Notes: generated by a model not told the origin, from the sequence alone. 64,000 nucleotides of DNA from Escherichia coli (GCF_048403405.1 NZ_CP183129.1), one strand, 5' to 3'; positions 5,368 through 38,515 are shown, counted from the stretch's first letter. Numbers and translations are program-made.

Positions 5368-5461
5368 GCACACGAAACAGCGTTGGTCCCCATATACCGG
5401 TAAACTGAAACTGCAGCGAAGCAGTTAGCAGAACCATGTATATCAGGTCTGTTTCGTGTGC
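5368..5461 (+). promoter_or_regulatory. rnc leader long-range stem (candidate RNase III autoregulatory processing hairpin)
   Basis: Perfect 13-bp inverted repeat gcacacgaaacag (5368-5380) / ctgtttcgtgtgc (5449-5461) in the 5' UTR ending about 35 nt upstream of the rnc ATG. Confidence 0.45.
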
Positions 5462-22531: not shown

Positions 22532-23722
22532 TCACAGCACCTTATGCGGACCAAAGCATTCGTAATGAATGTTTTCCTGCTTCACGCCCAGATCCACTAA
22601 CTGTTTCGCGGCAAACTGCATGAAGCCAACCGGGCCGCAGAGATAGAACTGCATTGTCGGATCGCTGAACGCACCTTCCAGTTTGCTCAAATCCATCAGA
22701 CCTTCGCTATCAAACTGACCTTTAGAGCGATCGGCTTCGCTCGGCTGACGATACCAGGTGTGCGCGGTAAAGCGCGGCAGTGACAGCCCCAGTTCCTTAA
22801 CTTCATCAGCAAAGGCGTGAACATCGCCATTTTCTGCCGCATGGAACCAGTTCACTTGTGCTGTGTGGCCTGCTTTTGCCAGTGTGTCGAGCATTGCCAG
22901 CATTGGCGTTTGGCCGACACCAGCAGAGATTAACGTCACCGGCGTGTCATCTGCGACAGCCATAAAGAAATCACCTGCCGGAGCGACCAGTTTCACGACA
23001 TCGCCAACATTGGCGTGATTGTGCAGCCAGTTGGATACCTGCCCACCCTCTTCGCGTTTCACCGCAATACGATAGCCTTTGCCATCCGGTTTGCGAGTCA
23101 AAGAGTACTGACGAATTTCCTGATGCGGGAAACCTTCCGGCTTCAGCCAGACGCCGAGATATTGCCCTGGACGGTATTCTGCCACTGCGCCACCGTCGAC
23201 CGGCTCCAGTTCGAAGCTGGTGATAAGCGCGCTGCGCGGTGTTTTAGCCACAATGCGGAAATCGCGAGTACCTTCCCAGCCACCGGCTTTGCTGGCGTTT
23301 TCGTTATAGATTTCCGCCTCGCGATTGATAAATACATTAGCCAGTACGCCATAGGCTTTACCCCATGCGTCCAGCACTTCCTGGCCCGGGCTGAACATTT
23401 CGTCCAGCGTCGCCAACAGGTGTTCACCGACAATGTTGTACTGTTCCGGTTTGATCTGGAAACTGGTGTGCTTCTGCGCGATTTTTTCTACCGCTGGCAG
23501 CAGCGCAGGCAGGTTTTCAATATTACTGGCGTAGGCGGCAATGGCGTTAAACAGGGCTTCACGTTGATCGCCATTACGCTGGTTACTCATGTTAAAAATT
23601 TCTTTGAGTTCTGGGTTATGAGTAAACATACGGTCGTAGAAATGGGCGGTTAACTTTGGCCCTGTTTCCACCAGTAAAGGGATGGTGGCTTTTACTGTAG
23701 CGATGGTTTGAGCGTCAAGCAT
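22532..23722 (-). CDS. hmp: flavohemoglobin / nitric oxide dioxygenase (396 aa)
   Basis: N-terminal globin domain followed by FAD- and NAD-binding reductase domains. Confidence 0.95.
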
Positions 23723-23749
23723 ATGGTCTTCCTTTTTTTTGCATCTTAA

Positions 23750-23772
23750 TTGATGTATCTCAAATACATCTT
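23750..23772. promoter_or_regulatory. NsrR-type operator overlapping the hmp promoter
   Basis: Near-palindrome ttgatgtatctcaaatacatctt (read on the hmp strand: AAGATGTATTTGAGATACATCAA), 28 bp upstream of the hmp start. Confidence 0.55.
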
Positions 23773-23916
23773 ATAAAAAATAGCCCTGCAATGTAAATGG
23801 TTCTTTGGTGTTTTTCAGAAAGAATGTGATGAAGTGAAAAATTTGCATCACAAACCTGAAAAGAAATCCGTTTCCGGTTGCAAGCTCTTTATTCTCCAAA
23901 GCCTTGCGCAGCCTGA

Positions 23917-23932
23917 AGGTAATCGTTTGCGT
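23917..23932 (+). promoter_or_regulatory. possible PurR half-operator upstream of glyA
   Basis: aggtaatCGTTTGCGT: the right half matches the pur box, the left half is weak. Confidence 0.3.
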
Positions 23933-24050
23933 AAATTCCTTTGTCAAGACCTGTTATCGCACAATGATTCGGTTATACTGTTCGCCGTTGTCCAACAGGA
24001 CCGCCTATAAAGGCCAAAAATTTTATTGTTAGCTGAGTCAGGAGATGCGG

Positions 24051-25304
24051 ATGTTAAAGCGTGAAATGAACATTGCCGATTATGATGCCGAACTGTGGCA
24101 GGCTATGGAGCAGGAAAAAGTACGTCAGGAAGAGCACATCGAACTGATCGCCTCCGAAAACTACACCAGCCCGCGCGTAATGCAGGCGCAGGGTTCTCAG
24201 CTGACCAACAAATATGCTGAAGGTTATCCGGGCAAACGCTACTACGGCGGTTGCGAGTATGTTGATATCGTTGAACAACTGGCGATCGATCGTGCGAAAG
24301 AACTGTTCGGCGCTGACTACGCTAACGTCCAGCCGCACTCCGGCTCCCAGGCTAACTTTGCGGTGTACACCGCGCTGCTGGAACCAGGCGATACCGTTCT
24401 GGGTATGAACCTGGCGCATGGCGGTCACCTGACTCACGGTTCTCCGGTTAACTTCTCCGGTAAACTGTATAACATCGTTCCTTACGGTATCGATGCTACC
24501 GGTCATATCGACTACGCCGATCTGGAAAAACAAGCCAAAGAACACAAACCGAAAATGATTATCGGTGGCTTCTCTGCATATTCCGGCGTGGTGGACTGGG
24601 CGAAAATGCGTGAAATCGCTGACAGCATCGGTGCTTACCTGTTCGTTGATATGGCGCACGTTGCGGGCCTGGTTGCTGCTGGCGTTTACCCGAACCCAGT
24701 TCCTCATGCTCACGTTGTTACTACCACCACTCACAAAACCCTGGCGGGTCCGCGCGGTGGCCTGATCCTGGCGAAAGGTGGTAGCGAAGAGCTGTACAAA
24801 AAACTGAACTCTGCCGTTTTCCCTGGTGGTCAGGGCGGTCCGTTGATGCACGTAATCGCCGGTAAAGCGGTTGCTCTGAAAGAAGCGATGGAGCCTGAGT
24901 TCAAAACTTACCAGCAGCAGGTCGCGAAAAACGCCAAAGCGATGGTAGAAGTGTTCCTGGAACGCGGCTACAAAGTGGTTTCTGGTGGTACTGATAACCA
25001 CCTGTTCCTGGTTGATCTGGTTGATAAAAACCTGACTGGTAAAGAAGCTGACGCCGCTCTGGGCCGTGCTAACATCACCGTTAACAAAAACAGCGTACCG
25101 AACGATCCGAAGAGCCCGTTTGTGACCTCCGGTATTCGCGTGGGTACTCCGGCGATTACCCGTCGTAGCTTTAAAGAAGCCGAAGCGAAAGAACTGGCTG
25201 GCTGGATGTGTGACGTGCTGGACAGCATCAATGATGAAGCGGTTATTGAGCGCATCAAAGGTAAAGTTCTCGACATCTGTGCACGTTACCCGGTTTACGC
25301 ATAA
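24051..25304 (+). CDS. glyA: serine hydroxymethyltransferase (417 aa)
   Basis: PLP-lysine motif [13 protein letters not shown]; start chosen at [12 protein letters not shown]. Confidence 0.95.
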
Positions 25305-25328
25305 GCGAAACGGTTAATCTGTTGAAAA

Positions 25329-25350
25329 AAGGCTTCCTTCGGGAAGCCTT
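25329..25350. terminator. bidirectional hairpin between convergent glyA and yphH
   Basis: aaggcttcc-ttcg-ggaagcctt preceded by an A-run and followed by tct. Confidence 0.55.
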
Positions 25351-25367
25351 TCTACGTTATCGCGCCA

Positions 25368-26567
25368 TCAAATCTGTCGTAACTGCGCCTCAACATACAA
25401 ATAGCCAATCCCCAGCACCTGTTGTGCGCGGCTTAATTGCCCAAAGCCAATTTTCGTCTCTTTCACGCTCGGTCCTTCGTCGCGGTCGAACGGGTTAAAT
25501 CCCGTCTGGCGAATAATGGTATTAAGCCAGTGCTCACCAAAGGCACAACTGCGACCGTACAACCAAATCTGATTAATATTGAGGATGTTGAGGAAGTTAT
25601 ACAGACTCAAACCAATGGCATTGGCAGAGCGATCAACCCAGCTGGTGATCCACGGTTCTCCACTCTGCCAGGCAGCGATTAACTGCGCTGTTGTCAGTTT
25701 TTCAGGATCAAGCTGAGTATTAACCGGTTGTGATTTTAGCCATACCCGCGCCTGTTTTTTTAATGCGCTTAACGAGGCGACGGTTTCCAGGCAACCATAA
25801 CGTCCGCAGTCGCAGACGACGCCATCCGGATTAACGATGGTGTGACCAATCTGTCCGCTACCATACAAACAGCCGCGATAAATTTGCTCGTTAATCACGA
25901 ACGACGAGCCAATGCCGTAATCAACGTTGATCACGCAGAAATCCCGTTCCTGCGAATTATTTTGCCATTTCTCCGCCAGCGCCAGCATCACGCAGTCATT
26001 ATCGACCATCACCCGAATGCCGAGCTTCTCTTCCAGCAGATACTTTACCTCAACCGGCGTTGTCCACGGCGCTTGCGGCATGGTTTGCGACACGCCGGTC
26101 ACCGGATCAACCTGACCGTGGATTGCCAGCGCCAGGTTGATGGTACGGTCCGGCCACAATTTACGGTGGCGATGCCAGCATTTTTCGATTTCGGACAGCA
26201 GCGCCTGCGGCGTCGGTGCATCAATCTGTAAATACTCAAATTCACCTTTCGGACTTAAACAGGCGTTAGCGACCTGACACTCAATACTGGTGGGCGTCAC
26301 GTTCAGGCACAGCGTCCAGTCACCTTCCGGCGCAATCAGCCATGTACCGCTACTATGCCCGCGCGTCTGGCTTTCATCGTCGATATTCACCACCCGTTTT
26401 TCGCTTTCCAGTTCCTGCAAAATATTACTGACCGCCGGAATCGAAATTTGCGCCAGCCGGGCCAGGGTTGATTTATTGGCGCGCTTTTGCCGGTACAGCA
26501 GTTCCAGAATCACGCATTTGTTATGGTGGCGAATCTGTTGATTATTAATGCAGGCTCTCATCTTCAC
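25368..26567 (-). CDS. yphH: ROK-family (NagC/Mlc-like) transcriptional regulator (399 aa)
   Basis: N-terminal HTH; ROK zinc motif CDCGRYGCLE; divergent from yphG. Confidence 0.85.
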   Translation of the reverse strand: MKMRACINNQQIRHHNKCVILELLYRQKRANKSTLARLAQISIPAVSNILQELESEKRVVNIDDESQTRGHSSGTWLIAPEGDWTLCLNVTPTSIECQVANACLSPKGEFEYLQIDAPTPQALLSEIEKCWHRHRKLWPDRTINLALAIHGQVDPVTGVSQTMPQAPWTTPVEVKYLLEEKLGIRVMVDNDCVMLALAEKWQNNSQERDFCVINVDYGIGSSFVINEQIYRGCLYGSGQIGHTIVNPDGVVCDCGRYGCLETVASLSALKKQARVWLKSQPVNTQLDPEKLTTAQLIAAWQSGEPWITSWVDRSANAIGLSLYNFLNILNINQIWLYGRSCAFGEHWLNTIIRQTGFNPFDRDEGPSVKETKIGFGQLSRAQQVLGIGYLYVEAQLRQI

Positions 26568-26678
26568 TAAACCTTGTTTAGTTAATTGCGTGATTATTCC
26601 GCGAAAACATTGCCAGATTGTTCAATACACTGCCACAAATCTTTTAATTCAGTATGTCTTGTTAATATTGAGGGCACC

Positions 26679-29600
26679 ATGACTCCAGTAAAAGTGTGGC
26701 AAGAGCGCGTTGAGATCCCGACCTATGAAACCGGGCCGCAGGATATACATCCCATGTTCCTGGAAAATCGCGTTTATCAGGGATCGTCCGGCGCGGTTTA
26801 TCCCTACGGCGTGACCGATACGCTGAGCGAGCAGAAAACCCTGAAATCCTGGCAGGCGGTGTGGCTGGAAAACGACTACATCAAAGTGATGATCCTGCCG
26901 GAACTGGGCGGTCGGGTGCATCGCGCGTGGGATAAAGTGAAACAGCGCGATTTTGTCTATCACAATGAAGTCATTAAACCGGCGCTGGTGGGGCTGCTGG
27001 GACCGTGGATCTCCGGCGGGATTGAGTTTAACTGGCCGCAACACCATCGCCCGACCACCTTTATGCCCGTTGATTTCACCCTCGAAGCCCATGAAGACGG
27101 CGCACAGACGGTGTGGGTAGGCGAAACGGAGCCGATGCATGGTTTACAGGTGATGACAGGTTTCACCCTGCGTCCTGACCGGGCGGCGCTGGAAATCGCC
27201 AGCCGCGTCTATAACGGCAACGCCACGCCGCGTCATTTCTTGTGGTGGGCCAACCCGGCAGTGAAAGGGGGTGAAGGGCATCAGAGCGTTTTCCCACCGG
27301 ATGTGACTGCGGTGTTTGATCACGGCAAACGGGCCGTCTCTGCTTTCCCCATCGCCACCGGCACTTACTACAAAGTGGACTACTCCGCTGGAGTGGACAT
27401 TTCTCGCTATAAAAATGTGCCTGTTCCAACCTCATATATGGCTGAAAAATCACAGTACGATTTTGTTGGCGCGTGGTGTCACGATGAAGATGGCGGTTTG
27501 CTGCACGTTGCCAACCACCATATTGCGCCAGGTAAAAAACAGTGGAGTTGGGGACACAGTGAATTTGGCCAGGCGTGGGATAAGAGTCTGACCGACAATA
27601 ACGGCCCGTATATCGAACTGATGACCGGTATTTTTGCCGATAACCAGCCTGATTTTACCTGGCTTGATGCGTACGAAGAGAAGCGTTTCGAGCAGTATTT
27701 CCTGCCTTATCATTCTCTGGGCATGGTGCAAAATGCCTCCCGCGATGCGGTGATAAAACTCCAGCGTAGTGAGCGGGGGATTGAGTGGGGGCTGTATGCC
27801 ATCTCTCCGTTGAAAGGATACCGTCTGGCGATCCGCGAAATCGGCAAATGCAACGCGTTACTCGATGATGCCGTGGCCCTGACACCAGCGACCGCCATCC
27901 AGGGCGTGTTGCACGGTATCAATCCTGACAGACTGACCATTGAACTCTCCGATGCCGACGGCAATATTGTACTGAGTTATCAGGAACATCAGCCGCAAGA
28001 GTTGCCGTTGCCGGACGTCGCCAAAGCGCCACTGGCAGCACAAGACATTACCAGTACAGATGAAGCCTGGTTTATCGGTCAGCATCTGGAGCAATATCAT
28101 CACGCCAGCCGTTCACCGTTCGATTACTACCTGCGCGGCGTGGCGCTGGATCCGCTGGATTATCGCTGTAACCTGGCGCTGGCGATGCTGGAATATAACC
28201 GCGCCGATTTCCCGCAAGCGGTGGCGTATGCCACTCAGGCGCTGAAACGCGCACATGCGCTGAACAAAAATCCGCAGTGCGGACAGGCGAGTTTGATTCG
28301 CGCCAGTGCTTACGAACGTCAGGGACAATATCAACAAGCCGAAGAGGATTTCTGGCGTGCGGTCTGGAGCGGCAACAGTAAAGCCGGAGGCTATTATGGT
28401 CTGGCACGACTGGCGGCGCGTAATGGTAACTTCGACGCGGGTCTGGATTTTTGCCAACAAAGTCTTCGCGCCTGCCCAACCAATCAGGAAGTGCTTTGCC
28501 TGCATAATCTGCTGCTGGTGTTAAGTGGTCGTCAGGACAACGCGCGTTTGCAGCGCGAGAAACTGCTGCGCGATTATCCGCTGAACGCCACTCTGTGGTG
28601 GCTGAACTGGTTCGATGGTCGTAGCGAATCAGCTCTCGCGCAGTGGCGCGGTCTGTGTCAGGGACGCGACGTTAACGCCCTGATGACCGCCGGGCAACTG
28701 ATTAACTGGGGAATGCCCACCCTGGCGGCAGAGATGCTGAACGCACTGGACTGCCAGCGCACGCTGCCGCTTTACCTGCAAGCCAGCTTGCTGCCGAAAG
28801 CCGAACGTGGCGAACTGGTCGCAAAAGCCATTGATGTCTTCCCGCAGTTTGTCCGTTTCCCGAATACGCTGGAAGAAGTGGCGGCGCTGGAGAGTATTGA
28901 AGAGTGCTGGTTTGCCCGTCATTTATTGGCCTGCTTCTACTACAACAAGCGTAGCTACGGCAAAGCCATTGCCTTATGGCAACGTTGCGTAGAGATGTCG
29001 CCGGAGTTTGCCGACGGCTGGCGCGGGTTAGCGATCCATGCGTGGAATAAGCAACACGATTATGAGCTGGCCGCGCGTTATCTTGATAATGCTTATCAGC
29101 TTGCGCCGCAGGATGCACGTCTGCTTTTCGAACGGGATTTGCTGGATAAGTTAAGTGGAGCCACACCGGAGAAACGACTGGCGCGTCTGGAAAATAATCT
29201 GGAAATTGCGCTGAAACGCGACGACATGACCGCAGAACTGCTCAATTTGTGGCATCTCACGGGTCAGGCAGACAAAGCGGCGGACATTCTCGCCACGCGC
29301 AAATTCCACCCGTGGGAAGGCGGGGAAGGGAAGATCACCAGTCAGTTTATCCTCAACCAGTTATTACGCGCCTGGCAGCATCTTGATGCCAGAGAGCCGC
29401 AGCAGGCCAGCGAACTGCTTCATGCCGCGCTGCATTATCCGGAGAATTTAAGCGAAGGCCGTTTACCGGGGCAAACTGATAACGACATCTGGTTCTGGCA
29501 GGCGATATGCGCCAACGCGCAGGGCGATGAAACTGAAGCGACGCGTTGTTTACGTCTGGCGGCGACTGGCGATCGCACCATTAACATTCACAGTTATTAC

Positions 29601-29960
29601 AACGATCAGCCGGTTGATTATCTCTTCTGGCAAGGAATGGCGCTGCGACTGCTGGGTGAACAGCAAACCGCACAGCAACTGTTTAGTGAAATGAAACAGT
29701 GGGCGCAAGAGATGGCGAAAACCAGTATTGAGGCGGATTTCTTTGCTGTTTCACAACCTGACCTGTTATCGCTGTATGGCGATTTACAACAGCAGCATAA
29801 AGAAAAATGCCTGATGGTGGCGATGCTGGCGTCCGCGGGACTCGGGGAGGTTGCGCACTATGAATCTGCTCGCGCTGAATTGACGGCGATTAATCCGGCC
29901 TGGCCGAAAGCGGCATTATTCACCACTGTGATGCCTTTTATTTTTAACCGCGTTCACTAA
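26679..29960 (+). CDS. yphG: large uncharacterised protein with a C-terminal TPR-like repeat region (1093 aa from ATG 26679; 1124 aa if ATG 26586 is used)
   Basis: ORF 26586..29960; the 26679 ATG has GAGGG 6 nt upstream and leaves room for divergent promoters; no signal peptide or transmembrane segment seen. Confidence 0.8.
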   Translation: MTPVKVWQERVEIPTYETGPQDIHPMFLENRVYQGSSGAVYPYGVTDTLSEQKTLKSWQAVWLENDYIKVMILPELGGRVHRAWDKVKQRDFVYHNEVIKPALVGLLGPWISGGIEFNWPQHHRPTTFMPVDFTLEAHEDGAQTVWVGETEPMHGLQVMTGFTLRPDRAALEIASRVYNGNATPRHFLWWANPAVKGGEGHQSVFPPDVTAVFDHGKRAVSAFPIATGTYYKVDYSAGVDISRYKNVPVPTSYMAEKSQYDFVGAWCHDEDGGLLHVANHHIAPGKKQWSWGHSEFGQAWDKSLTDNNGPYIELMTGIFADNQPDFTWLDAYEEKRFEQYFLPYHSLGMVQNASRDAVIKLQRSERGIEWGLYAISPLKGYRLAIREIGKCNALLDDAVALTPATAIQGVLHGINPDRLTIELSDADGNIVLSYQEHQPQELPLPDVAKAPLAAQDITSTDEAWFIGQHLEQYHHASRSPFDYYLRGVALDPLDYRCNLALAMLEYNRADFPQAVAYATQALKRAHALNKNPQCGQASLIRASAYERQGQYQQAEEDFWRAVWSGNSKAGGYYGLARLAARNGNFDAGLDFCQQSLRACPTNQEVLCLHNLLLVLSGRQDNARLQREKLLRDYPLNATLWWLNWFDGRSESALAQWRGLCQGRDVNALMTAGQLINWGMPTLAAEMLNALDCQRTLPLYLQASLLPKAERGELVAKAIDVFPQFVRFPNTLEEVAALESIEECWFARHLLACFYYNKRSYGKAIALWQRCVEMSPEFADGWRGLAIHAWNKQHDYELAARYLDNAYQLAPQDARLLFERDLLDKLSGATPEKRLARLENNLEIALKRDDMTAELLNLWHLTGQADKAADILATRKFHPWEGGEGKITSQFILNQLLRAWQHLDAREPQQASELLHAALHYPENLSEGRLPGQTDNDIWFWQAICANAQGDETEATRCLRLAATGDRTINIHSYYNDQPVDYLFWQGMALRLLGEQQTAQQLFSEMKQWAQEMAKTSIEADFFAVSQPDLLSLYGDLQQQHKEKCLMVAMLASAGLGEVAHYESARAELTAINPAWPKAALFTTVMPFIFNRVH

Positions 29961-30056
29961 ACCCTATTAACTGTAATATTTGAGCGGCACGCGCTGCCGC
30001 TCATCACAAAATAATTAGAATAAGCCGTTGTAAATAAAAACCCTACAGGAGGCACT

Positions 30057-31040
30057 ATGCCTAAAAAAATGAGAACAACCCGTAATCTATTATTAATGGC
30101 TACGCTATTAGGTAGCGCTCTATTTGCCAGGGCAGCGGATAAAGAAATGACCATTGGTGCAATATACCTTGATACCCAGGGATATTACGCTGGCGTGCGT
30201 CAGGGCGTTCAGGATGCGGCAAAAGATTCTTCAGTACAGGTACAGTTAATTGAAACTAACGCCCAGGGCGATATTTCGAAAGAAAGTACTTTTGTAGATA
30301 CCCTCGTGGCGCGTAATGTCGATGCCATTATTTTATCGGCAGTATCTGAAAATGGCAGTAGCCGTACCGTTCGTCGCGCCAGTGAAGCGGGTATTCCGGT
30401 GATTTGCTACAACACCTGTATTAATCAAAAGGGTGTCGATAAATATGTCTCGGCATATCTGGTTGGTGACCCGCTGGAATTTGGTAAAAAACTGGGTAAC
30501 GCTGCCGCCGATTATTTTATTGCCAACAAAATTGACCAGCCGAAAATTGCCGTCATCAATTGCGAAGCCTTTGAAGTTTGTGTGCAACGACGTAAAGGGT
30601 TTGAAGAAGTATTAAAAGCCCGCGTTCCCGGCGCGCAAATTGTCGCTAATCAGGAAGGGACTGTTTTAGATAAAGCGATTTCCGTTGGTGAAAAACTAAT
30701 TATCTCCACGTCGGATCTCAACGCCATTATGGGGGAATCGGGCGGTGCGACACTCGGCGCGGTAAAAGCGGTACGTAATCAAAATCAGGCCGGAAAAATT
30801 GCTGTTTTCGGTTCGGATATGACCACTGAAATTGCTCAGGAGCTGGAAAACAATCAGGTGCTGAAAGCGGTGGTGGATATTTCCGGTAAGAAAATGGGCA
30901 ATGCTGTTTTCGCGCAAACTTTGAAGGTTATCAATAAACAAGCCGACGGTGAAAAAGTGATTCAGGTGCCAATCGATCTCTATACCAAAACGGAAGACGG
31001 TAAACAGTGGCTGGCAACGCACGTTGATGGTCTGCCCTAA
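30057..31040 (+). CDS. yphF: ABC transporter periplasmic sugar-binding protein (327 aa)
   Basis: Signal peptide MPKKMRTTRNLLLMATLLGSALFARA; type I periplasmic binding fold; SD AGGAGG upstream. Confidence 0.85.
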   Translation: MPKKMRTTRNLLLMATLLGSALFARAADKEMTIGAIYLDTQGYYAGVRQGVQDAAKDSSVQVQLIETNAQGDISKESTFVDTLVARNVDAIILSAVSENGSSRTVRRASEAGIPVICYNTCINQKGVDKYVSAYLVGDPLEFGKKLGNAAADYFIANKIDQPKIAVINCEAFEVCVQRRKGFEEVLKARVPGAQIVANQEGTVLDKAISVGEKLIISTSDLNAIMGESGGATLGAVKAVRNQNQAGKIAVFGSDMTTEIAQELENNQVLKAVVDISGKKMGNAVFAQTLKVINKQADGEKVIQVPIDLYTKTEDGKQWLATHVDGLP

Positions 31041-31062
31041 TCGCTGATTCGCAGAGGTCCCT

Positions 31063-32574
31063 ATGTTCACGGCAACAGAGGCAGTCCCGGTAGCAAAAGT
31101 GGTGGCAGGAAATAAGCGTTATCCCGGCGTCGTTGCGTTGGATAACGTTAACTTCACGCTCAATAAAGGCGAAGTTCGTGCGCTGTTAGGCAAAAACGGC
31201 GCGGGCAAATCGACCCTCATTCGAATGCTTACCGGCAGTGAACGTCCGGATAGCGGTGATATCTGGATTGGCGAGACGCGACTGGAAGGTGACGAAGCTA
31301 CGTTGACTCGCCGTGCCGCTGAACTGGGGGTTCGTGCGGTTTATCAGGAGTTAAGTCTGGTGGAGGGACTGACGGTGGCGGAAAACCTCTGCCTCGGTCA
31401 GTGGCCCCGCCGCAACGGCATGATTGATTACCTGCAAATGGCGCAGGATGCCCAACGTTGCTTACAGGCGCTGGGCGTTGACGTTAGCCCTGAACAACTT
31501 GTTTCAACGCTAAGCCCGGCACAAAAGCAACTGGTGGAAATTGCGCGGGTGATGAAGGGCGAGCCGCGCGTGGTCATTCTTGATGAACCTACCAGTTCGC
31601 TTGCCAGTGCGGAAGTTGAACTGGTGATCAGTGCGGTTAAAAAGATGTCGGCACTGGGCGTGGCGGTGATTTATGTCAGCCACCGGATGGAAGAAATCCG
31701 CCGCATTGCCTCCTGTGCCACCGTTATGCGCGATGGTCAGGTGGCGGGCGATGTGATGCTCGAAAACACCTCCACGCATCATATTGTGTCGCTAATGCTC
31801 GGGCGCGATCACGTTGATATTGCGCCGGTTGCCCCTCAGGAAATTGTCGATCAGGCTGTGCTGGTAGTCCGTGCGTTACGCCATAAGCCCAAGCTGGAGG
31901 ATATCAGCTTTACGCTACGTCGTGGCGAAGTACTCGGCATTGCTGGCCTGCTGGGGGCAGGGCGCAGTGAATTGCTGAAGGCGATTGTTGGGCTGGAGAC
32001 GTATGAACAGGGCGAAATTGTTATCAACGGCGAGAAAATCACGCGCCCCGATTACGGCGACATGCTGAAACGCGGCATTGGCTATACGCCAGAAAACCGC
32101 AAAGAAGCGGGGATCATTCCCTGGCTGGGCGTTGACGAAAATACAGTGCTGACCAATCGGCAAAAAATCAGCGCCAACGGTGTGCTGCAATGGTCCACCA
32201 TCCGCCGCCTGACCGAAGAGGTGATGCAGCGGATGACGGTCAAGGCCGCCAGTAGCGAAACGCCCATCGGCACGCTTTCTGGCGGCAATCAGCAAAAAGT
32301 GGTGATCGGTCGTTGGGTCTATGCCGCCAGCCAGATTTTGTTGCTCGACGAGCCAACGCGTGGCGTCGATATCGAAGCCAAACAGCAGATTTACCGTATT
32401 GTCCGCGAGCTGGCTGCCGAAGGAAAAAGTGTGGTGTTTATCTCCAGTGAAGTGGAGGAGTTGCCGCTGGTGTGTGACCGCATCCTGTTATTACAGCACG
32501 GTACGTTCTCGCAGGAGTTTCACTCGCCGGTCAATGTGGATGAGCTGATGTCCGCCATTCTGTCTGTGCACTGA
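31063..32574 (+). CDS. yphE: sugar ABC transporter ATP-binding protein, duplicated ABC domains (503 aa)
   Basis: Walker A GKNGAGKST, a second ABC domain and signature LSGGNQQK. Confidence 0.9.
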   Translation: MFTATEAVPVAKVVAGNKRYPGVVALDNVNFTLNKGEVRALLGKNGAGKSTLIRMLTGSERPDSGDIWIGETRLEGDEATLTRRAAELGVRAVYQELSLVEGLTVAENLCLGQWPRRNGMIDYLQMAQDAQRCLQALGVDVSPEQLVSTLSPAQKQLVEIARVMKGEPRVVILDEPTSSLASAEVELVISAVKKMSALGVAVIYVSHRMEEIRRIASCATVMRDGQVAGDVMLENTSTHHIVSLMLGRDHVDIAPVAPQEIVDQAVLVVRALRHKPKLEDISFTLRRGEVLGIAGLLGAGRSELLKAIVGLETYEQGEIVINGEKITRPDYGDMLKRGIGYTPENRKEAGIIPWLGVDENTVLTNRQKISANGVLQWSTIRRLTEEVMQRMTVKAASSETPIGTLSGGNQQKVVIGRWVYAASQILLLDEPTRGVDIEAKQQIYRIVRELAAEGKSVVFISSEVEELPLVCDRILLLQHGTFSQEFHSPVNVDELMSAILSVH

Positions 32575-32598
32575 TGAATTTTACCGAGGAACCTGAAG

Positions 32599-33597
32599 AT
32601 GTCTGCTTCGTCATTACCATTGCCGCAGGGCAAGAGCGTCTCGCTCAAACAATTTGTCAGTCGCCATATTAATGAGATCGGTTTGCTGGTGGTGATCGCC
32701 ATTCTTTATCTGGTCTTCTCTCTGAACGCGCCGGGTTTTATCTCATTGAATAACCAGATGAACGTGCTGCGCGATGCCGCCACCATTGGGATTGCCGCCT
32801 GGGCGATGACGCTGATTATTATCTCCGGAGAAATTGATGTCAGCGTTGGGCCGATGGTGGCTTTTGTCTCGGTGTGCCTGGCATTTTTGCTGCAATTTGA
32901 AGTTCCGCTGGCGATAGCTTGTCTGCTGGTGTTGCTGTTAGGCGCGCTGATGGGAACGCTGGCCGGGGTGCTGCGCGGCGTGTTTAACGTGCCAAGTTTT
33001 GTTGCCACGCTGGGTTTATGGAGCGCCCTGCGCGGAATGGGGCTGTTTATGACGAACGCCTTGCCAGTGCCGATTGACGAAAACGAAGTGCTGGACTGGC
33101 TGGGGGGACAATTTCTCGGTGTGCCGGTATCCGCGCTGATCATGATGGTGTTGTTTGCGCTGTTTGTGTTCATCAGCCGCAAAACCGCCTTCGGGCGCTC
33201 GGTTTTTGCTGTTGGCGGTAATGCCACTGCAGCACAGTTGTGCGGTATTAACGTTCGTCGGGTACGCATTCTTATTTTTACCCTTTCGGGATTATTAGCG
33301 GCGGTGACCGGCATTTTGTTGGCGGCGCGCCTCGGTTCCGGTAACGCAGGTGCCGCAAACGGTCTGGAGTTTGACGTCATCGCCGCGGTCGTGGTTGGCG
33401 GTACGGCGCTTTCCGGTGGTCGCGGCTCGTTGTTCGGTACGCTGCTTGGCGTACTGGTGATTACGCTAATCGGTAACGGTCTGGTGCTGCTCGGGATTAA
33501 CTCCTTTTTCCAGCAGGTGGTGCGCGGCGTCATCATCGTGGTGGCGGTGCTGGCGAATATCTTGCTGACTCAGCGAAGCAGTAAAGCGAAACGCTAA
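32599..33597 (+). CDS. yphD: sugar ABC transporter permease (332 aa)
   Basis: Polytopic hydrophobic protein of the RbsC/AraH-like permease type immediately after yphE. Confidence 0.85.
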   Translation: MSASSLPLPQGKSVSLKQFVSRHINEIGLLVVIAILYLVFSLNAPGFISLNNQMNVLRDAATIGIAAWAMTLIIISGEIDVSVGPMVAFVSVCLAFLLQFEVPLAIACLLVLLLGALMGTLAGVLRGVFNVPSFVATLGLWSALRGMGLFMTNALPVPIDENEVLDWLGGQFLGVPVSALIMMVLFALFVFISRKTAFGRSVFAVGGNATAAQLCGINVRRVRILIFTLSGLLAAVTGILLAARLGSGNAGAANGLEFDVIAAVVVGGTALSGGRGSLFGTLLGVLVITLIGNGLVLLGINSFFQQVVRGVIIVVAVLANILLTQRSSKAKR

Positions 33598-33662
33598 ACC
33601 TTAACGCCCCTGGCGCGGGTGCGGCAGGGATGAAAATTAATCGTATTGTTAATGAGGGATTT

Positions 33663-34724
33663 ATGAAAACGATGCTGGCAGCTTATTTACCAGGAAATTC
33701 GACCGTCGATCTGCGGGAAGTTGCGGTGCCGACGCCGGGGATTAACCAGGTACTGATCAAAATGAAATCCTCCGGGATTTGCGGAAGTGATGTCCACTAT
33801 ATCTATCATCAACACCGTGCCACGGCAGCGGCACCCGATAAACCGTTATACCAGGGATTTATCAACGGTCATGAACCGTGCGGGCAAATTGTGGAGATGG
33901 GGCAAGGCTGCCGCCATTTTAAAGAGGGCGACCGCGTGCTGGTGTATCACATTTCTGGCTGTGGTTTTTGCCCGAACTGCCGCCGCGGCTTTCCTATCTC
34001 TTGTACTGGCAAAGGAAAAGCGGCTTACGGCTGGCAGCGTGACGGCGGCCATGCTGAATACCTGCTGGCGGAAGAAAAAGATCTGATCCTGCTCCCGGAC
34101 GCGCTGAGCTATGAAGATGGTGCGTTTATCAGTTGCGGCGTTGGTACAGCGTATGAAGGGATTTTGCGCGGCGAAGTTTCCGGCAGTGATAACGTGCTGG
34201 TGGTCGGTCTGGGGCCGGTCGGCATGATGGCGATGATGCTGGCGAAAGGTCGCGGTGCAAAACGGATCATCGGCGTTGATATGCTGCCGGAACGTCTGGC
34301 GATGGCGAAACAGTTAGGGGTGATGGATCACGGCTATTTAGCAACCACCGAAGGTCTGCCGCAGATTATCGCCGAACTCACCCACGGTGGCGCGGATGTT
34401 GCGCTCGATTGTTCCGGTAATGCCGCAGGTCGCTTACTGGCGTTGCAATCCACTGCTGACTGGGGACGGGTGGTTTACATCGGAGAAACCGGAAAAGTGG
34501 AGTTCGAGGTTAGCGCCGATCTGATGCATCATCAACGGCGGATTATTGGCTCCTGGGTAACCAGTTTGTTCCATATGGAAAAATGTGCCCACGATTTGAC
34601 TGACTGGAAACTGTGGCCGCGTAATGCCATTACCCATCGCTTCACGCTGGAACAGGCAGGAGATGCCTATGCGCTGATGGCGAGCGGTAAATGCGGGAAA
34701 GTTGTGATTAACTTCCCGGATTAA
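33663..34724 (+). CDS. yphC: Zn-dependent alcohol/polyol dehydrogenase family protein (353 aa)
   Basis: GHEPCG zinc-ligand motif and Rossmann GLGPVG; start chosen at MKTMLAAYLPG. Confidence 0.85.
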   Translation: MKTMLAAYLPGNSTVDLREVAVPTPGINQVLIKMKSSGICGSDVHYIYHQHRATAAAPDKPLYQGFINGHEPCGQIVEMGQGCRHFKEGDRVLVYHISGCGFCPNCRRGFPISCTGKGKAAYGWQRDGGHAEYLLAEEKDLILLPDALSYEDGAFISCGVGTAYEGILRGEVSGSDNVLVVGLGPVGMMAMMLAKGRGAKRIIGVDMLPERLAMAKQLGVMDHGYLATTEGLPQIIAELTHGGADVALDCSGNAAGRLLALQSTADWGRVVYIGETGKVEFEVSADLMHHQRRIIGSWVTSLFHMEKCAHDLTDWKLWPRNAITHRFTLEQAGDAYALMASGKCGKVVINFPD

Positions 34725-34735
34725 GGAGTCAGCGG

Positions 34736-35608
34736 ATGACCATCTATACGTTATCTCACGGGCCGCTAGAGCTGGACGTTTCTGACCGGGGCGGCGTCAT
34801 CGAAGGCTTCTGGCGTGACGCGACGCCGCTCTTACGTCCCGGTAAAAAAAGCGGTGTGGCAACCGATGCCTCTTGTTTTCCGCTGGTGCCGTTTGCAAAC
34901 CGGGTGAGCGGCAATCGTTTTGTCTGGCAGGGGCGTGAGTATCAACTGCAACCGAATGTTGAGTGGGATGCGCACTATCTGCACGGCGACGGCTGGCTGG
35001 GGCAGTGGCAATGTGTCTCGCGCAGCGAAGATAGCTTGTGTCTGGTGTATGAACATCGCAGCGGTGTTTATCACTATCGGGTAAGTCAGGCGTTTCATTT
35101 AACGGCAGATACGCTGACGGTGACGCTCTCTGTCACCAATCAAGGGGCAGAGACGCTGCCATTTGGTACCGGCTGGCATCCTTATTTTCCGTTGTCACCA
35201 CAAACGCGGATTCAGGCGCAGGCGAGCGGTTACTGGCTGGAGCGGGAGCAGTGGCTGGCGGGTGAGTTTTGCGAGCAGCTACCGCAGGAACTGGATTTCA
35301 ACCAGCTCGCGCCGTTGCCGCGCCAGTGGGTGAACAATGGTTTTGCCGGATGGAATGGTCAGGCTCGCATCGAGCAGCCGCAGGAGGGTTATGCCATCAT
35401 CATGGAAACGACGCCACCTGCACCATGTTATTTCATCTTTGTTTCCGACCCGGCGTTTGATAAAGGATATGCGTTTGATTTCTTCTGTCTGGAACCGATG
35501 AGCCATGCGCCGGATGACCATCATCGCCCGGAAGGTGGTGATCTCATTGCGCTTGCACCAGGGGAATCAACAACTTCAGAGATGTCGTTGCGGGTTGCGT
35601 TACTGTAA
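34736..35608 (+). CDS. yphB: aldose 1-epimerase (mutarotase)-like protein (290 aa)
   Basis: ORF 34736..35608 with conserved His/Glu pattern of the aldose-epimerase superfamily. Confidence 0.8.
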   Translation: MTIYTLSHGPLELDVSDRGGVIEGFWRDATPLLRPGKKSGVATDASCFPLVPFANRVSGNRFVWQGREYQLQPNVEWDAHYLHGDGWLGQWQCVSRSEDSLCLVYEHRSGVYHYRVSQAFHLTADTLTVTLSVTNQGAETLPFGTGWHPYFPLSPQTRIQAQASGYWLEREQWLAGEFCEQLPQELDFNQLAPLPRQWVNNGFAGWNGQARIEQPQEGYAIIMETTPPAPCYFIFVSDPAFDKGYAFDFFCLEPMSHAPDDHHRPEGGDLIALAPGESTTSEMSLRVALL

Positions 35609-35617
35609 TTTATAAAA

Positions 35618-35649
35618 TGCCGGATAAGGCGTTCACGCCGCATCCGGCA
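35618..35649. repeat. REP element between convergent yphB and yphA
   Basis: tgccggataaggcgttcacgccgcatccggca, a canonical REP palindrome. Confidence 0.6.
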
Positions 35650-35655
35650 TCTTTC

Positions 35656-36078
35656 CTAACGCCGATCGAGAGAAATCGCCCCCGGCCCGGTAATTGCCAA
35701 CAGCAGGAATGCGCCAGCGATACTGACATTCTTCCAGAAATTAATCATATTTGGCCCAACCGCATCGCCGGTCATATCCCAGTAATGGTGACCAATCACC
35801 GCCGTACCCAGCGTGTAGAAAATAAACAGCACCGCCAGCGGACGGGTGAAAAAGCCAAGCACGATTAATATCGCGGCGGGCACTTCCATAACTACCGCAA
35901 TAATCGCTGCCAGCATCGGCATTGGCGCGCCCAGCGAGGCCATATATTGGACCGTACCGTCAAAACCCATCATTTTGGGAAAACCAAAAATAATGAAAAT
36001 TAAGACCACGGCGATACGGGCAATTAATAACAAAACGGGGCGTGCAGCACCAAAATCAAAATAACGTAGTGAGTTCAT
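35656..36078 (-). CDS. yphA: DoxX-family inner membrane protein (140 aa)
   Basis: ORF 35656..36150; start at [10 protein letters not shown]; four hydrophobic helices. Confidence 0.8.
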
Positions 36079-36174
36079 AACCAATCCCTTTGCAAGATAA
36101 TGTGATTTAAACGTAATACACACTCTTGCACCTCGCCACGCCCCAGGCATTGAGATATTCGCTAATTATCCTGG

Positions 36175-37386
<1,212 letters not shown>

Positions 37387-38199
37387 TTAAAGATCCAGCC
37401 CAGCCGCTACGTGGCGAATGCCGCGAATCGCTAAACCCGCATCAGCGTTGATCATCACACCGCTTAATGCGCGATTATTGCGCCGCGATGCCAACATCAC
37501 ATACGGACCCGTAAAATCCGCCGGTTGCGGGAAAAATTGCAGCGGTAAAATGGCGGCAATTTTCTCCGGCGTCAGAGACTGCATTATCGAGGTTTCACTT
37601 TGCCCGAGCGCCTGTGGGCCGCGCAGGTCGCTGGCCATACCACACGGGCCGACGCCATTCACCCGCACTTTCGGTGCCAGTTCATAAGCCAGTTGGCGAA
37701 TAAGTCCGGTTGCGGCATGTTTACTGGCGGTGTACAGCGGGCCACCGCCGCCGGGATACCAGGCGGCATTTGACAGTGTGAAAATCATGCTGCCTTCACT
37801 GGCGATTAACGCCGGAGCGCAGGCTTTTGCGCCCAGCAGGTAACCGAGTACGTTGACGTTAAACAGCTCGTGGAAGCCAGTTTCGAGCGTCTCTGCGGGA
37901 GTATTAACCAGTGAGGCATTGTGATCCCAGATGCCCGCATTGCCGATAAAACAATCCAGCTTGCCAGAACGAGTCAGGATCTGATCGACCGCGCGTTGAT
38001 AATCGGCATAGCAGGTCACGTTACCTTCCACCGCCAGAATATGTTCGCCAAATCGCTGACGCAGACTGGCGACTTTTGCCGCCGACAGTTCCAGCGTGGC
38101 AACCTGCGCGCCTTCTTCGATAAATCGCTCGACCAGCGCCAGGCCTAATCCCGATCCGCCGCCGGTAATAAAGATGGACTCGTTATGCAGATCGCTCAT
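37387..38199 (-). CDS. hcaB: cis-dihydrodiol dehydrogenase, SDR family (270 aa)
   Basis: Cofactor motif TGGGSGLG; SDR fold. Confidence 0.9.
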
Positions 38200-38515
38200 G
38201 GCTGCGCCTCCGGTAAGTCGATGAAGATGTCACCACCTTCAACGTGTACTGGATAAGTGGTTAGCGGATCGGTGGCGGGCAGGCATAACGCTTTCCCCGT
38301 TTTCAGGCAAAAACTGGCGGCGTGCAGCGGGCACTCCACCGTGGCGTCATCTTCCAGATACCCTTCTGACATCGACGCATTACCATGGCTGCAACGATCG
38401 TTAATGGCATAAAACTCGCCGCCTACGTTGAACAGGGCGATGACGGGCGAGGTATCGATCCGGAGAGCCTCACCCTCCGGCACATCCGCAACGGGACACG
38501 CATAAATTCGATTCA

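Follow-up and report, generated by a model that had tools for sequence, protein, structure and literature searches.

Gene neighborhoods point toward galactose-configured sugars as probable substrates of the uncharacterized yph locus of Escherichia coli

INTRODUCTION

The regulons of the ROK-family repressors NagC and Mlc are the closest described regulatory counterparts of the Escherichia coli yphH-yphA region, which lies at positions 25368 to 36078 of the 64,000-nucleotide chromosomal stretch studied here (GCF_048403405.1 NZ_CP183129.1; the whole stretch is referred to as the window). YphH, the product of the regulatory gene of this region, has been described as a third, uncharacterized ROK repressor of E. 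coli (2014; PMC4288165) and has been counted with those E. coli transcription factors whose function is unknown (2022; PMC9308461). It is like NagC and Mlc in family, domain layout, and divergence from its target genes, and these two proteins are its best matches. The predicted yph operator is likewise palindromic, AT rich, and approximately 23 to 25 bp long, with two boxes approximately 85 nucleotides (nt) apart in the spacer upstream of yphH, an arrangement resembling the operator pairs that NagC uses for looping. The yph operator sequence is different, however, and the genes it would control have no connection with amino sugars or the phosphotransferase system. The linker motif that defines the operator choice of NagC and Mlc is not conserved in the YphH group (PMC4288165).

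For the remaining genes the nearest comparisons are metabolic and structural. Oxidative D-galactose (De Ley-Doudoroff) loci of Aquitalea, Rhizobium, and Agrobacterium share orthologs of YphF, YphE, and YphD and a YphB-type mutarotase (45 to 55% identity), with YphC shared at 83% in Aquitalea. These loci carry dgoD, dgoA, lactonase, SDR, and GntR genes beside the transporter, whereas the E. coli window lacks these and has YphH and YphG. The dgo genes of E. coli are located elsewhere on the chromosome. The GalM family, of which YphB is a member, shares with the large protein YphG the first histidine and the conserved glutamate; YphG differs from it by an asparagine at the second histidine, an extra beta domain, and a tetratricopeptide repeat (TPR) superhelix of approximately 630 residues. 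The only solved relative of YphG is PDB 5CD6 (BDI_1685 of Parabacteroides distasonis), a structural-genomics entry of approximately half the length (575 to 580 residues) whose name, "TPR-domain containing protein," gives no function. The alignment with it, 544 residues long, is too short to extend into the C-terminal TPR part of YphG, in which two conserved loops, F-x-P-W-E-G-G-E-G and P-x-N-L-G-E-G, are found.

An earlier note on this DNA had called the yph cluster the functionally least explained block of the window, with no assigned substrate. None of the eight proteins reaches the cutoff of a curated NCBIfam equivalog, and the literature searched assigns them no function. No functional study of the yph genes, DUF5107, PF17128, b2549, BDI_1685, or 5CD6 was found in that literature, where yphG appears only as a Klebsiella polymerase chain reaction marker and in an expression list, DUF5107 appears only in an unrelated context, and matches for yphC, yphB, and yphF are mostly to unrelated genes of Bacillus, Helicobacter, or Chlamydia. 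The cluster is already annotated as uncharacterized; what is new here is a testable functional assignment, comprising a narrowed substrate, a mosaic history, two strong candidate YphH operators, and the description of YphG as a noncanonical mutarotase-fold and TPR protein. We propose, with moderate confidence, that the yph genes, assembled from two evolutionary modules, form a regulon that YphH represses and that serves a galactose-configured sugar (D-galactose, a close relative, or a small galactoside).

RESULTS

Gene content and conservation of the yph locus

The chromosomal yphH-yphA region is flanked by glyA upstream and hcaD downstream. All eight frames are open and full length, both in a listing of open reading frames (ORFs) and in the RefSeq annotation of an identical chromosome:

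25368 to 26561, minus strand: yphH, ROK-family repressor, paralogous to NagC and Mlc
26679 to 29960, plus strand: yphG, 1,093 amino acids (aa), cytoplasmic, DUF5107 and TPR repeats
30057 to 31040, plus strand: yphF, periplasmic CUT2-type sugar-binding protein
31063 to 32574, plus strand: yphE, duplicated ABC ATPase
32599 to 33597, plus strand: yphD, ABC permease
33630 to 34724, plus strand: yphC, Zn-dependent MDR dehydrogenase (RefSeq start; 33663 is more likely)
34736 to 35608, plus strand: yphB, small aldose 1-epimerase
35656 to 36078, minus strand: yphA, DoxX membrane protein

Gene content and families agree with the picture of a ROK regulator divergent from a block for sugar uptake, anomer conversion, and oxidation that had been drawn in the earlier note, and its family calls for YphH, YphG, YphF, YphE, YphD, YphC, YphB, and YphA were all correct. 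The plus-strand block contains six genes (yphG, yphF, yphE, yphD, yphC, and yphB) and not the seven counted there, and with the annotated ATG of yphH the divergent spacer runs from 26562 to 26678 instead of from 26568. The 10.7-kb yph stretch was found in 5,425 of 5,426 complete E. coli genomes, with at least 80% of it present in 5,370. Together with the open frames, this upholds the view that the cluster is real and intact and not a decayed remnant. The stretch is 100% identical in six E. coli genomes and 95 to 99% identical in nearly all others.

Genes that travel with YphG

Eighty genome loci and three others (numbered with the prefix L) were fetched, their ORFs were called, and the neighbors of YphG were clustered; counts are given out of 82 loci, which represent several phyla. 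The families recovered were as follows:

Sugar-porter major facilitator superfamily (MFS) protein (TIGR00879; XylE-like): 58 of 82 loci, usually adjacent and on the same strand
AraC regulator: 50 of 82 loci, mostly on the opposite strand
BT4151-like glycoside hydrolase (GH) family 2 beta-galactosidase: 24 of 82 loci
GalM: 10 of 82 loci
GH36 alpha-galactosidase: 9 of 82 loci
Sulfatases: 8 of 82 loci
GH97 alpha-galactosidase: 6 of 82 loci
GalA/GalB-like GH2: 4 of 82 loci
GH95: 4 of 82 loci

The pair of YphG and porter is kept in Bacteroidota, where it stands beside galactosidases, and in one Bacteroidota locus a galactokinase and a sodium:solute symporter adjoin YphG. ROK regulators (16 loci) and YphB-like mutarotases (18 loci) were confined to the Gammaproteobacteria, the common layout there being a ROK gene next to YphG, MFS, and mutarotase genes in that order. 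The Firmicute partner of YphG is a family designated f20, comprising mutarotase-like proteins of approximately 320 aa encoded beside YphG in loci of Paenibacillus and Ruminiclostridium (L067:13318-14292 plus five more from Firmicutes). More distant clades of the family carry a signal peptide, which E. coli YphG lacks. These DUF5107-TPR proteins are encoded in polysaccharide utilization loci (L089:10001-13303 and the JGI contig of P0231), of which one encodes SusC/D, GH16, Pel9A-like beta-helix proteins, and sulfatases, and another encodes GH36, GalM, and a sugar porter. Three neighbor families (f34, f36, and f30) had no match in NCBIfam or PDB. The YphG family is conserved among bacteria as different as E. 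coli, gut Bacteroides, and soil Paenibacillus, and its neighbors link it consistently to the breakdown of galactosides.

The yphFEDCB cassette and its galactonate-linked relatives

YphFED fits the CUT2 importers by its NCBIfam similarity to the Ara, Xyl, Als, Mgl, and Rbs systems, and its orthologs carry the Pfam domains Peripla_BP_4, two ABC_tran domains, and BPD_transp_2. It could not be named as any one of the sugar ABC systems Ara, Xyl, Als, Mgl, Rbs, Ytf, or Lsr, as every score fell below the equivalog cutoff: the best NCBIfam matches of YphF (AlsB, MglB, LsrB, and a rhizopine binding protein) reached 50 to 60 bits, far below cutoff, YphE scored 454 bits against AraG, 433 against XylG, and 411 against MglA, and YphD scored 227 bits against RbsC and 221 against AraH. 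The best solved match of YphF is 5HSG. YphC likewise stayed below cutoff against Tdh (172 bits) and IolM (170 bits), and its PDB neighbors are alcohol, xylitol, threonine, and sorbitol dehydrogenases. YphB matches PDB 3NRE best (E. coli K-12 b2544, a structural-genomics entry; E value, 4.9e-202; residues 1 to 288). By fold and by its residues His83, His148, and Glu253, which are invariant in 13 family members, YphB is predicted to be an aldose 1-epimerase.

Among the 82 loci, yphFED together with yphC was restricted to Escherichia and a few relatives. In most loci of other Enterobacterales, Aeromonas, and Photobacterium, the ROK, YphG, and MFS genes are accompanied by a mutarotase gene whose product is only approximately 30% identical to YphB. 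Serratia quinivorans has both transporters, a ROK gene standing next to YphG-MFS-YphF-YphE-YphD-YphC-YphB. The mutarotases encoded in the yphF-like operons of Rhizobium and Aquitalea share 45% and 55% identity, respectively, with YphB, and the mutarotase of MFS-type clusters is only 26 to 35% identical to those of the cassette type. On this comparative evidence, the E. coli yph cluster is a mosaic in which a yphH-yphG core was joined to a yphFEDCB cassette.

YphF orthologs at 57 to 69% identity head operons tied to galactonate catabolism. In Rhizobium and Agrobacterium, a GntR gene stands next to genes for a binding protein, ATPase, permease, mutarotase, GMC oxidoreductase, and galactonate dehydratase (729 bits; cutoff, 311), with an SDR following in Agrobacterium. 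The yphFEDCB-like operon of Aquitalea (YphC, 83% identity to E. coli; YphF, 69%; YphB, 55%) converges on genes for a galactonate dehydratase (649 bits; cutoff, 311), a 2-keto-3-deoxy-6-phosphogalactonate (KDPGal) aldolase (285 bits; cutoff, 207), an SDR, and an SGL-family lactonase. The context of the cassette orthologs, which is independent of the YphG neighborhoods, also points to D-galactose or a very close analog as the probable substrate. The earlier note had found the substrate not evident. The neighborhood evidence now narrows it toward galactose-configured sugars. Within positions 23000 to 38500 of the window, no galactonate dehydratase, 2-keto-3-deoxygalactonate kinase, or KDPGal aldolase was found.

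YphH and its predicted operators

YphH is a member of the ROK family, and its translation contains the zinc motif CDCGRYGC typical of ROK proteins. YphH is neither a NagC nor an Mlc equivalog, as it scores 110 bits against NagC (cutoff, 650) and 107 bits against Mlc (cutoff, 530), the Mlc profile covering residues 9 to 334 and the NagC profile residues 118 to 342. Pfam ROK was matched on YphH orthologs, with a weak HTH_24 match on fragments of a frameshifted ortholog. In nearly all Gammaproteobacterial loci having yphH, it is divergent from yphG.

Conservation was read from an alignment of 15 yphH-yphG spacers from Gammaproteobacterial genera, and a position weight matrix (PWM) built from 13 non-Escherichia sites was scanned over both strands of the 64-kb window and compared with 200 shuffles. 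The elements recognized in the two spacers are as follows:

26563 to 26587, plus strand: box 1 (TTCACTAAACCTTGTTTAGTTAATT), a predicted operator of YphH that includes the inverted repeat ACTAAAC-N3-GTTTAGT
26586 to 26593, plus strand: TTGCGTGA block directly after box 1, near-invariant in the 15 spacers from Escherichia to Aeromonas
26626 to 26631, plus strand: TACACT, a putative -10-like hexamer (TAnACT) for yphG, in the conserved columns TA.ACTGcCa
26648 to 26670, plus strand: box 2, TTCAGTATGTCTTGTTAATATTG, a weaker relative of box 1 just before the yphG ribosome-binding site
29953 to 29977, plus strand: box 3, predicted YphH operator TTCACTAAACCCTATTAACTGTAAT, before yphF, overlapping both the stop codon of yphG and a -10-like element, TAATAT
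29981 to 30003, plus strand: GC-rich hairpin lacking a U-tract, GAGCGGCAC-gcgct-GCCGCTCA, located after box 3 and before yphF (-16.0 kcal/mol)

The 25-nt box adjoining the yphH start has the consensus TTnACTAAACyyyGTTwACTGTATT and is kept across Gammaproteobacterial genera out to Aeromonas. In the E. coli spacer it forms a 10-3-10 inverted repeat (26563 to 26585), with the related box 85 nt away as a direct-repeat partner; this second box is conserved in the alignment as TTcA.T.T...TTgTT.A and lies below the PWM threshold. Box 3, 80 nt upstream of yphF, surfaced unsought in the PWM scan. It received the highest score in the window (33.0 at 29953), followed by box 1 (27.7 at 26563), and the next best score in the 64 kb was 12.8; the maxima of the 200 shuffles averaged 11.1 and peaked at 20.3. 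The 33 nt around box 3 are identical in 5,036 of 5,414 E. coli genomes (93%).

Boxes equivalent to box 3 were found at the yphG/yphF junction in loci L005, L008, and L009. Serratia has boxes between its ROK and YphG genes (31.4) and between its MFS and YphF genes (25.1), the latter with a ATGCGTGA tail that is the counterpart of the TTGCGTGA block. Across the 1.65 Mb of fetched loci, PWM hits of at least 16 were almost confined to ROK-YphG spacers, YphG-YphF junctions, and the region upstream of one Citrobacter operon. Loci without the ROK gene have no box. A BLAST search of E. coli genomes for further operator copies returned only the junction site, the method being too insensitive for degenerate sites. 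The TTGCGTGA block was also considered as a CRP site, to which it is by inspection a poor match.

We infer from these patterns that YphH would control two promoters, those of yphG and yphFEDCB. The note's expectation of a coregulated, cotranscribed block is therefore supported in its first part, by the common operator-like box predicted in silico before yphG and yphF, but two transcription units are suggested and not one. The hairpin at 29981 to 30003 could be a processing, stability, or pause element.

In Citrobacter sp. FP75 (L019:7125-8650), the genes next to the ROK gene encode a GPH-family glycoside symporter and a GH36 alpha-galactosidase, and a box with a score of 20.5 lies upstream of them. 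In Photobacterium pectinilyticum (L022), a GPH symporter and a GH2 enzyme adjoin the ROK gene, with no box at threshold. Together, the two loci suggest that the YphH regulon can include galactoside uptake.

YphG is a mutarotase-fold protein with a TPR superhelix

YphG belongs to a large family (3,940 clusters in a 50%-identity library), and almost all complete sequences among its best hits are approximately 1,100 residues long. Residues 1 to 480 share 54 to 57% identity with homologs from Bacteroidota, Paenibacillus, Clostridia, and others, the value over the full length being approximately 40%. A full-length AlphaFold2 (AF2) model computed from 101 sequences (predicted local distance difference test [pLDDT], 96; predicted template modeling score, 0.94) replaced an earlier model of residues 1 to 480 from 20 sequences (pLDDT, 60). 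In this model, a beta-sandwich of residues 1 to 345 (DUF5107) with the mutarotase fold is followed by a small beta domain (residues 350 to 435) and by helical repeats to the C terminus, the TPR superhelix extending over residues 460 to 1092. Within the helical part are the two conserved loop motifs, at approximately residues 876 to 884 and 921 to 927. His122, His123, Arg124, Asn192, His215, Lys286, Lys287, and Glu313 are invariant or near-invariant in the alignments.

The active site was mapped from sequence profiles and not from superposed coordinates. A direct comparison of the DUF5107 profile with the YphB and GalM profiles gave no match. A chain through the Firmicute f20 family gave 95% probability between DUF5107 and f20 and 94% between f20 and YphB. 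The f20 family had no match in NCBIfam, and by this chain it appears to be a remote relative of both DUF5107 and YphB. In the chained alignment, YphG His123 corresponds to the first mutarotase histidine, the conserved glutamate of the GPYxELM motif is retained, and the invariant Asn192 falls at His162 of f20 and His148 of YphB, so that the second catalytic histidine is missing. YphG therefore appears to have a mutarotase fold without being a canonical mutarotase.

No sequence match of YphG to named GH or polysaccharide lyase families was found in NCBIfam, Pfam, or PDB; the setting of the family beside galactosidases and in polysaccharide utilization loci would fit a glycan-cleaving activity. 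Its identity across phyla, the size of its family, and its invariant polar residues make YphG look like an enzyme. A lactonase function was considered and rejected because YphG occurs mostly without any dehydrogenase.

Margins and annotation of the locus

Only 7 of the 82 YphG loci have yphA, in five cases between glyA and yphH. The gene lies between glyA and yphH in several Enterobacterales and after yphB in Escherichia and E. albertii (loci L007, L008, L012, L024, and L003 compared); this indicates a rearrangement, either of the cluster or of yphA, with respect to glyA. The yphA gene is probably just a neighbor, and its membership in the yph system is doubtful. The convergent yphB and yphA genes are separated by 47 nt, which are filled by one further element:

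35617 to 35650, strand not assigned: hairpin GCCGGATAAGGCGTTCACGCCGCATCCGGC (-22.9 kcal/mol), a putative repetitive extragenic palindromic (REP)-like element by its resemblance to the REP consensus

The start of yphC is ambiguous. RefSeq uses the ATG at 33630 (364 aa), and the ATG at 33663 fits alignments with the 83%-identical Aquitalea homolog and with the 353-aa Enterobacterales orthologs. A long ORF starting with TTG at 26586 was rejected as the start of yphG.

Only 6 of 5,425 E. coli genomes were at least 99% identical to the window across the yph cluster, and because they are so few, the source strain is taken to belong to a sparsely sampled lineage. In two long-contig assemblies of an enterobacterium (L002 and L003), the glnB-hmp-glyA-yph region is split into many short ORFs, which look like assembly frameshift errors and not real pseudogenes.

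DISCUSSION

Gene content, fold, conservation, cis-element statistics, and neighborhood associations are the observations on which our interpretation of the yph locus draws. Two independent lines point to galactose as the likely substrate type, namely, the neighbors of YphG and the orthologs of YphF, YphC, and YphB that occur without YphG. Under the proposed galactose-configured regulon, the yphH-yphG core would form one module and the yphFEDCB cassette, with its own YphH-controlled promoter, a second. YphH would bind at 26563 to 26587 (with the weaker partner at 26648 to 26670) and at 29953 to 29977, repressing yphG and yphFEDCB, and derepression would occur when the sugar or a derivative binds YphH. 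YphFED would bring the sugar in and YphB would equilibrate its anomers. YphC may then oxidize the sugar, with C1 as the most likely position, and galactonolactone followed by galactonate would be the products that feed the dgo pathway; this oxidation is weakly supported. In the cytoplasm, YphG, with its mutarotase-fold domain held in the TPR superhelix, would convert a member of the same sugar family. Our best guess is that, starting from a small galactoside or from another ring form, it releases or re-forms galactose in its free state. This role is favored because a transporter and a small mutarotase accompany YphG in three phyla, because it has secreted relatives in polysaccharide utilization loci, and because it has lost the catalytic histidine.

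Several points weigh against this proposal. The nearest characterized relatives of YphC are polyol, threonine, and alcohol dehydrogenases and not sugar 1-dehydrogenases. In both Aquitalea and Agrobacterium, the locus also encodes an SDR, and if this enzyme is the true galactose 1-dehydrogenase, YphC would have a different role. Growth of E. coli galK mutants on galactose is not known to occur, and any oxidative route would therefore be silent or specific to another sugar. On the regulatory side, no strong box was found before yphF in loci L006 and L007, and a generic promoter and terminator scan gave no consensus sigma-70 promoter in either spacer and no signal above the shuffles. DgoD-like enzymes have also been proposed for 6-substituted galactonates such as sulfogalactonate (PMC12421959); set against the sulfogalactonate caveat, the Aquitalea aldolase is of the phospho type.

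The properties of YphC lead to the alternative that the substrate is a polyol or a nongalactose sugar, such as galactitol, L-arabinose, or D-fucose. YphC would then act as a polyol or secondary-alcohol dehydrogenase, its product would pass to YphB and Leloir-type housekeeping, and there would be no galactonate route. CUT2 transporters carry polyols besides sugars, the closest relatives of YphC are IolM and the threonine, xylitol, and sorbitol dehydrogenases, and the glucose 1-dehydrogenase-type SDR of Aquitalea and Agrobacterium could perform the C1 oxidation with YphC or the GMC enzyme one step upstream. In every version of the operon, however, a mutarotase lies directly beside YphC or the GMC enzyme, as is typical of anomer-specific aldose 1-dehydrogenases, and the galactosidases and GalM near YphG point to galactose itself. 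We consider a nongalactose substrate rather unlikely.

For YphG, a nonenzymatic role as a sugar-binding scaffold or sensor would also account for an invariant asparagine in place of the second catalytic histidine. Its pocket would bind galactose and its approximately 630 residues of true TPR, a protein-protein interaction fold, would contact the transporter or regulator to tune uptake or induction; the placement of yphG directly beside a transporter gene across phyla would fit such a role. Cross-phylum identity of 54 to 57% over 480 residues, with His122/123, Asn192, His215, Glu313, and Lys286/287 invariant, is nonetheless more typical of catalysis. The partner regulators vary, being ROK proteins in Gammaproteobacteria and AraC proteins elsewhere, and the signal-peptide clades in polysaccharide utilization loci fit a carbohydrate-active enzyme better than a cytoplasmic sensor. 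A scaffold or sensor role for YphG is accordingly judged improbable.

More improbable still is that YphG is a second, large galactose mutarotase. The first histidine and the glutamate of GPYxELM would allow it, but the chained profiles (95% and 94%) place Asn192 at the catalytic histidine, and neither the size of 1,093 aa nor the conserved TPR loop motifs would be explained. A separate small mutarotase (YphB, GalM, or f20) almost always co-occurs with YphG, and redundancy with it is therefore unlikely.

That the locus is a cryptic leftover in E. coli, never induced and with no current physiological role, would agree with the loss of the MFS porter that accompanies YphG in 58 of 82 loci and with the lack of a reported phenotype or inducer in the literature searched, but it is very hard to reconcile with frames that are all intact, a locus kept in 5,370 to 5,425 of 5,426 genomes, a junction operator identical in 93% of genomes, and an ABC cassette that supplies a transporter in the porter's stead.

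Beyond the proposed regulon for a galactose-configured sugar, we raise a broader and more tentative possibility. DUF5107/YphG might found a new carbohydrate-active family, with a modified mutarotase fold in which asparagine replaces histidine and a TPR clamp that adds conserved acidic loops. Its substrates would be galactose configured, with the YphG clade at work in the cytoplasm and the clades with signal peptides in the periplasm. E. coli might, in addition, possess a latent, YphH-repressed route from galactose to D-galactonate through YphB and YphC.

The yph genes are a still function-less part of the E. coli genome, yet they are kept in almost every strain. A galactose-type substrate and located candidate operators turn an open-ended problem into a few focused assays. 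The reaction of YphG, once found, would fill a gap in the processing of galactose-containing glycans by many bacteria, gut species included.

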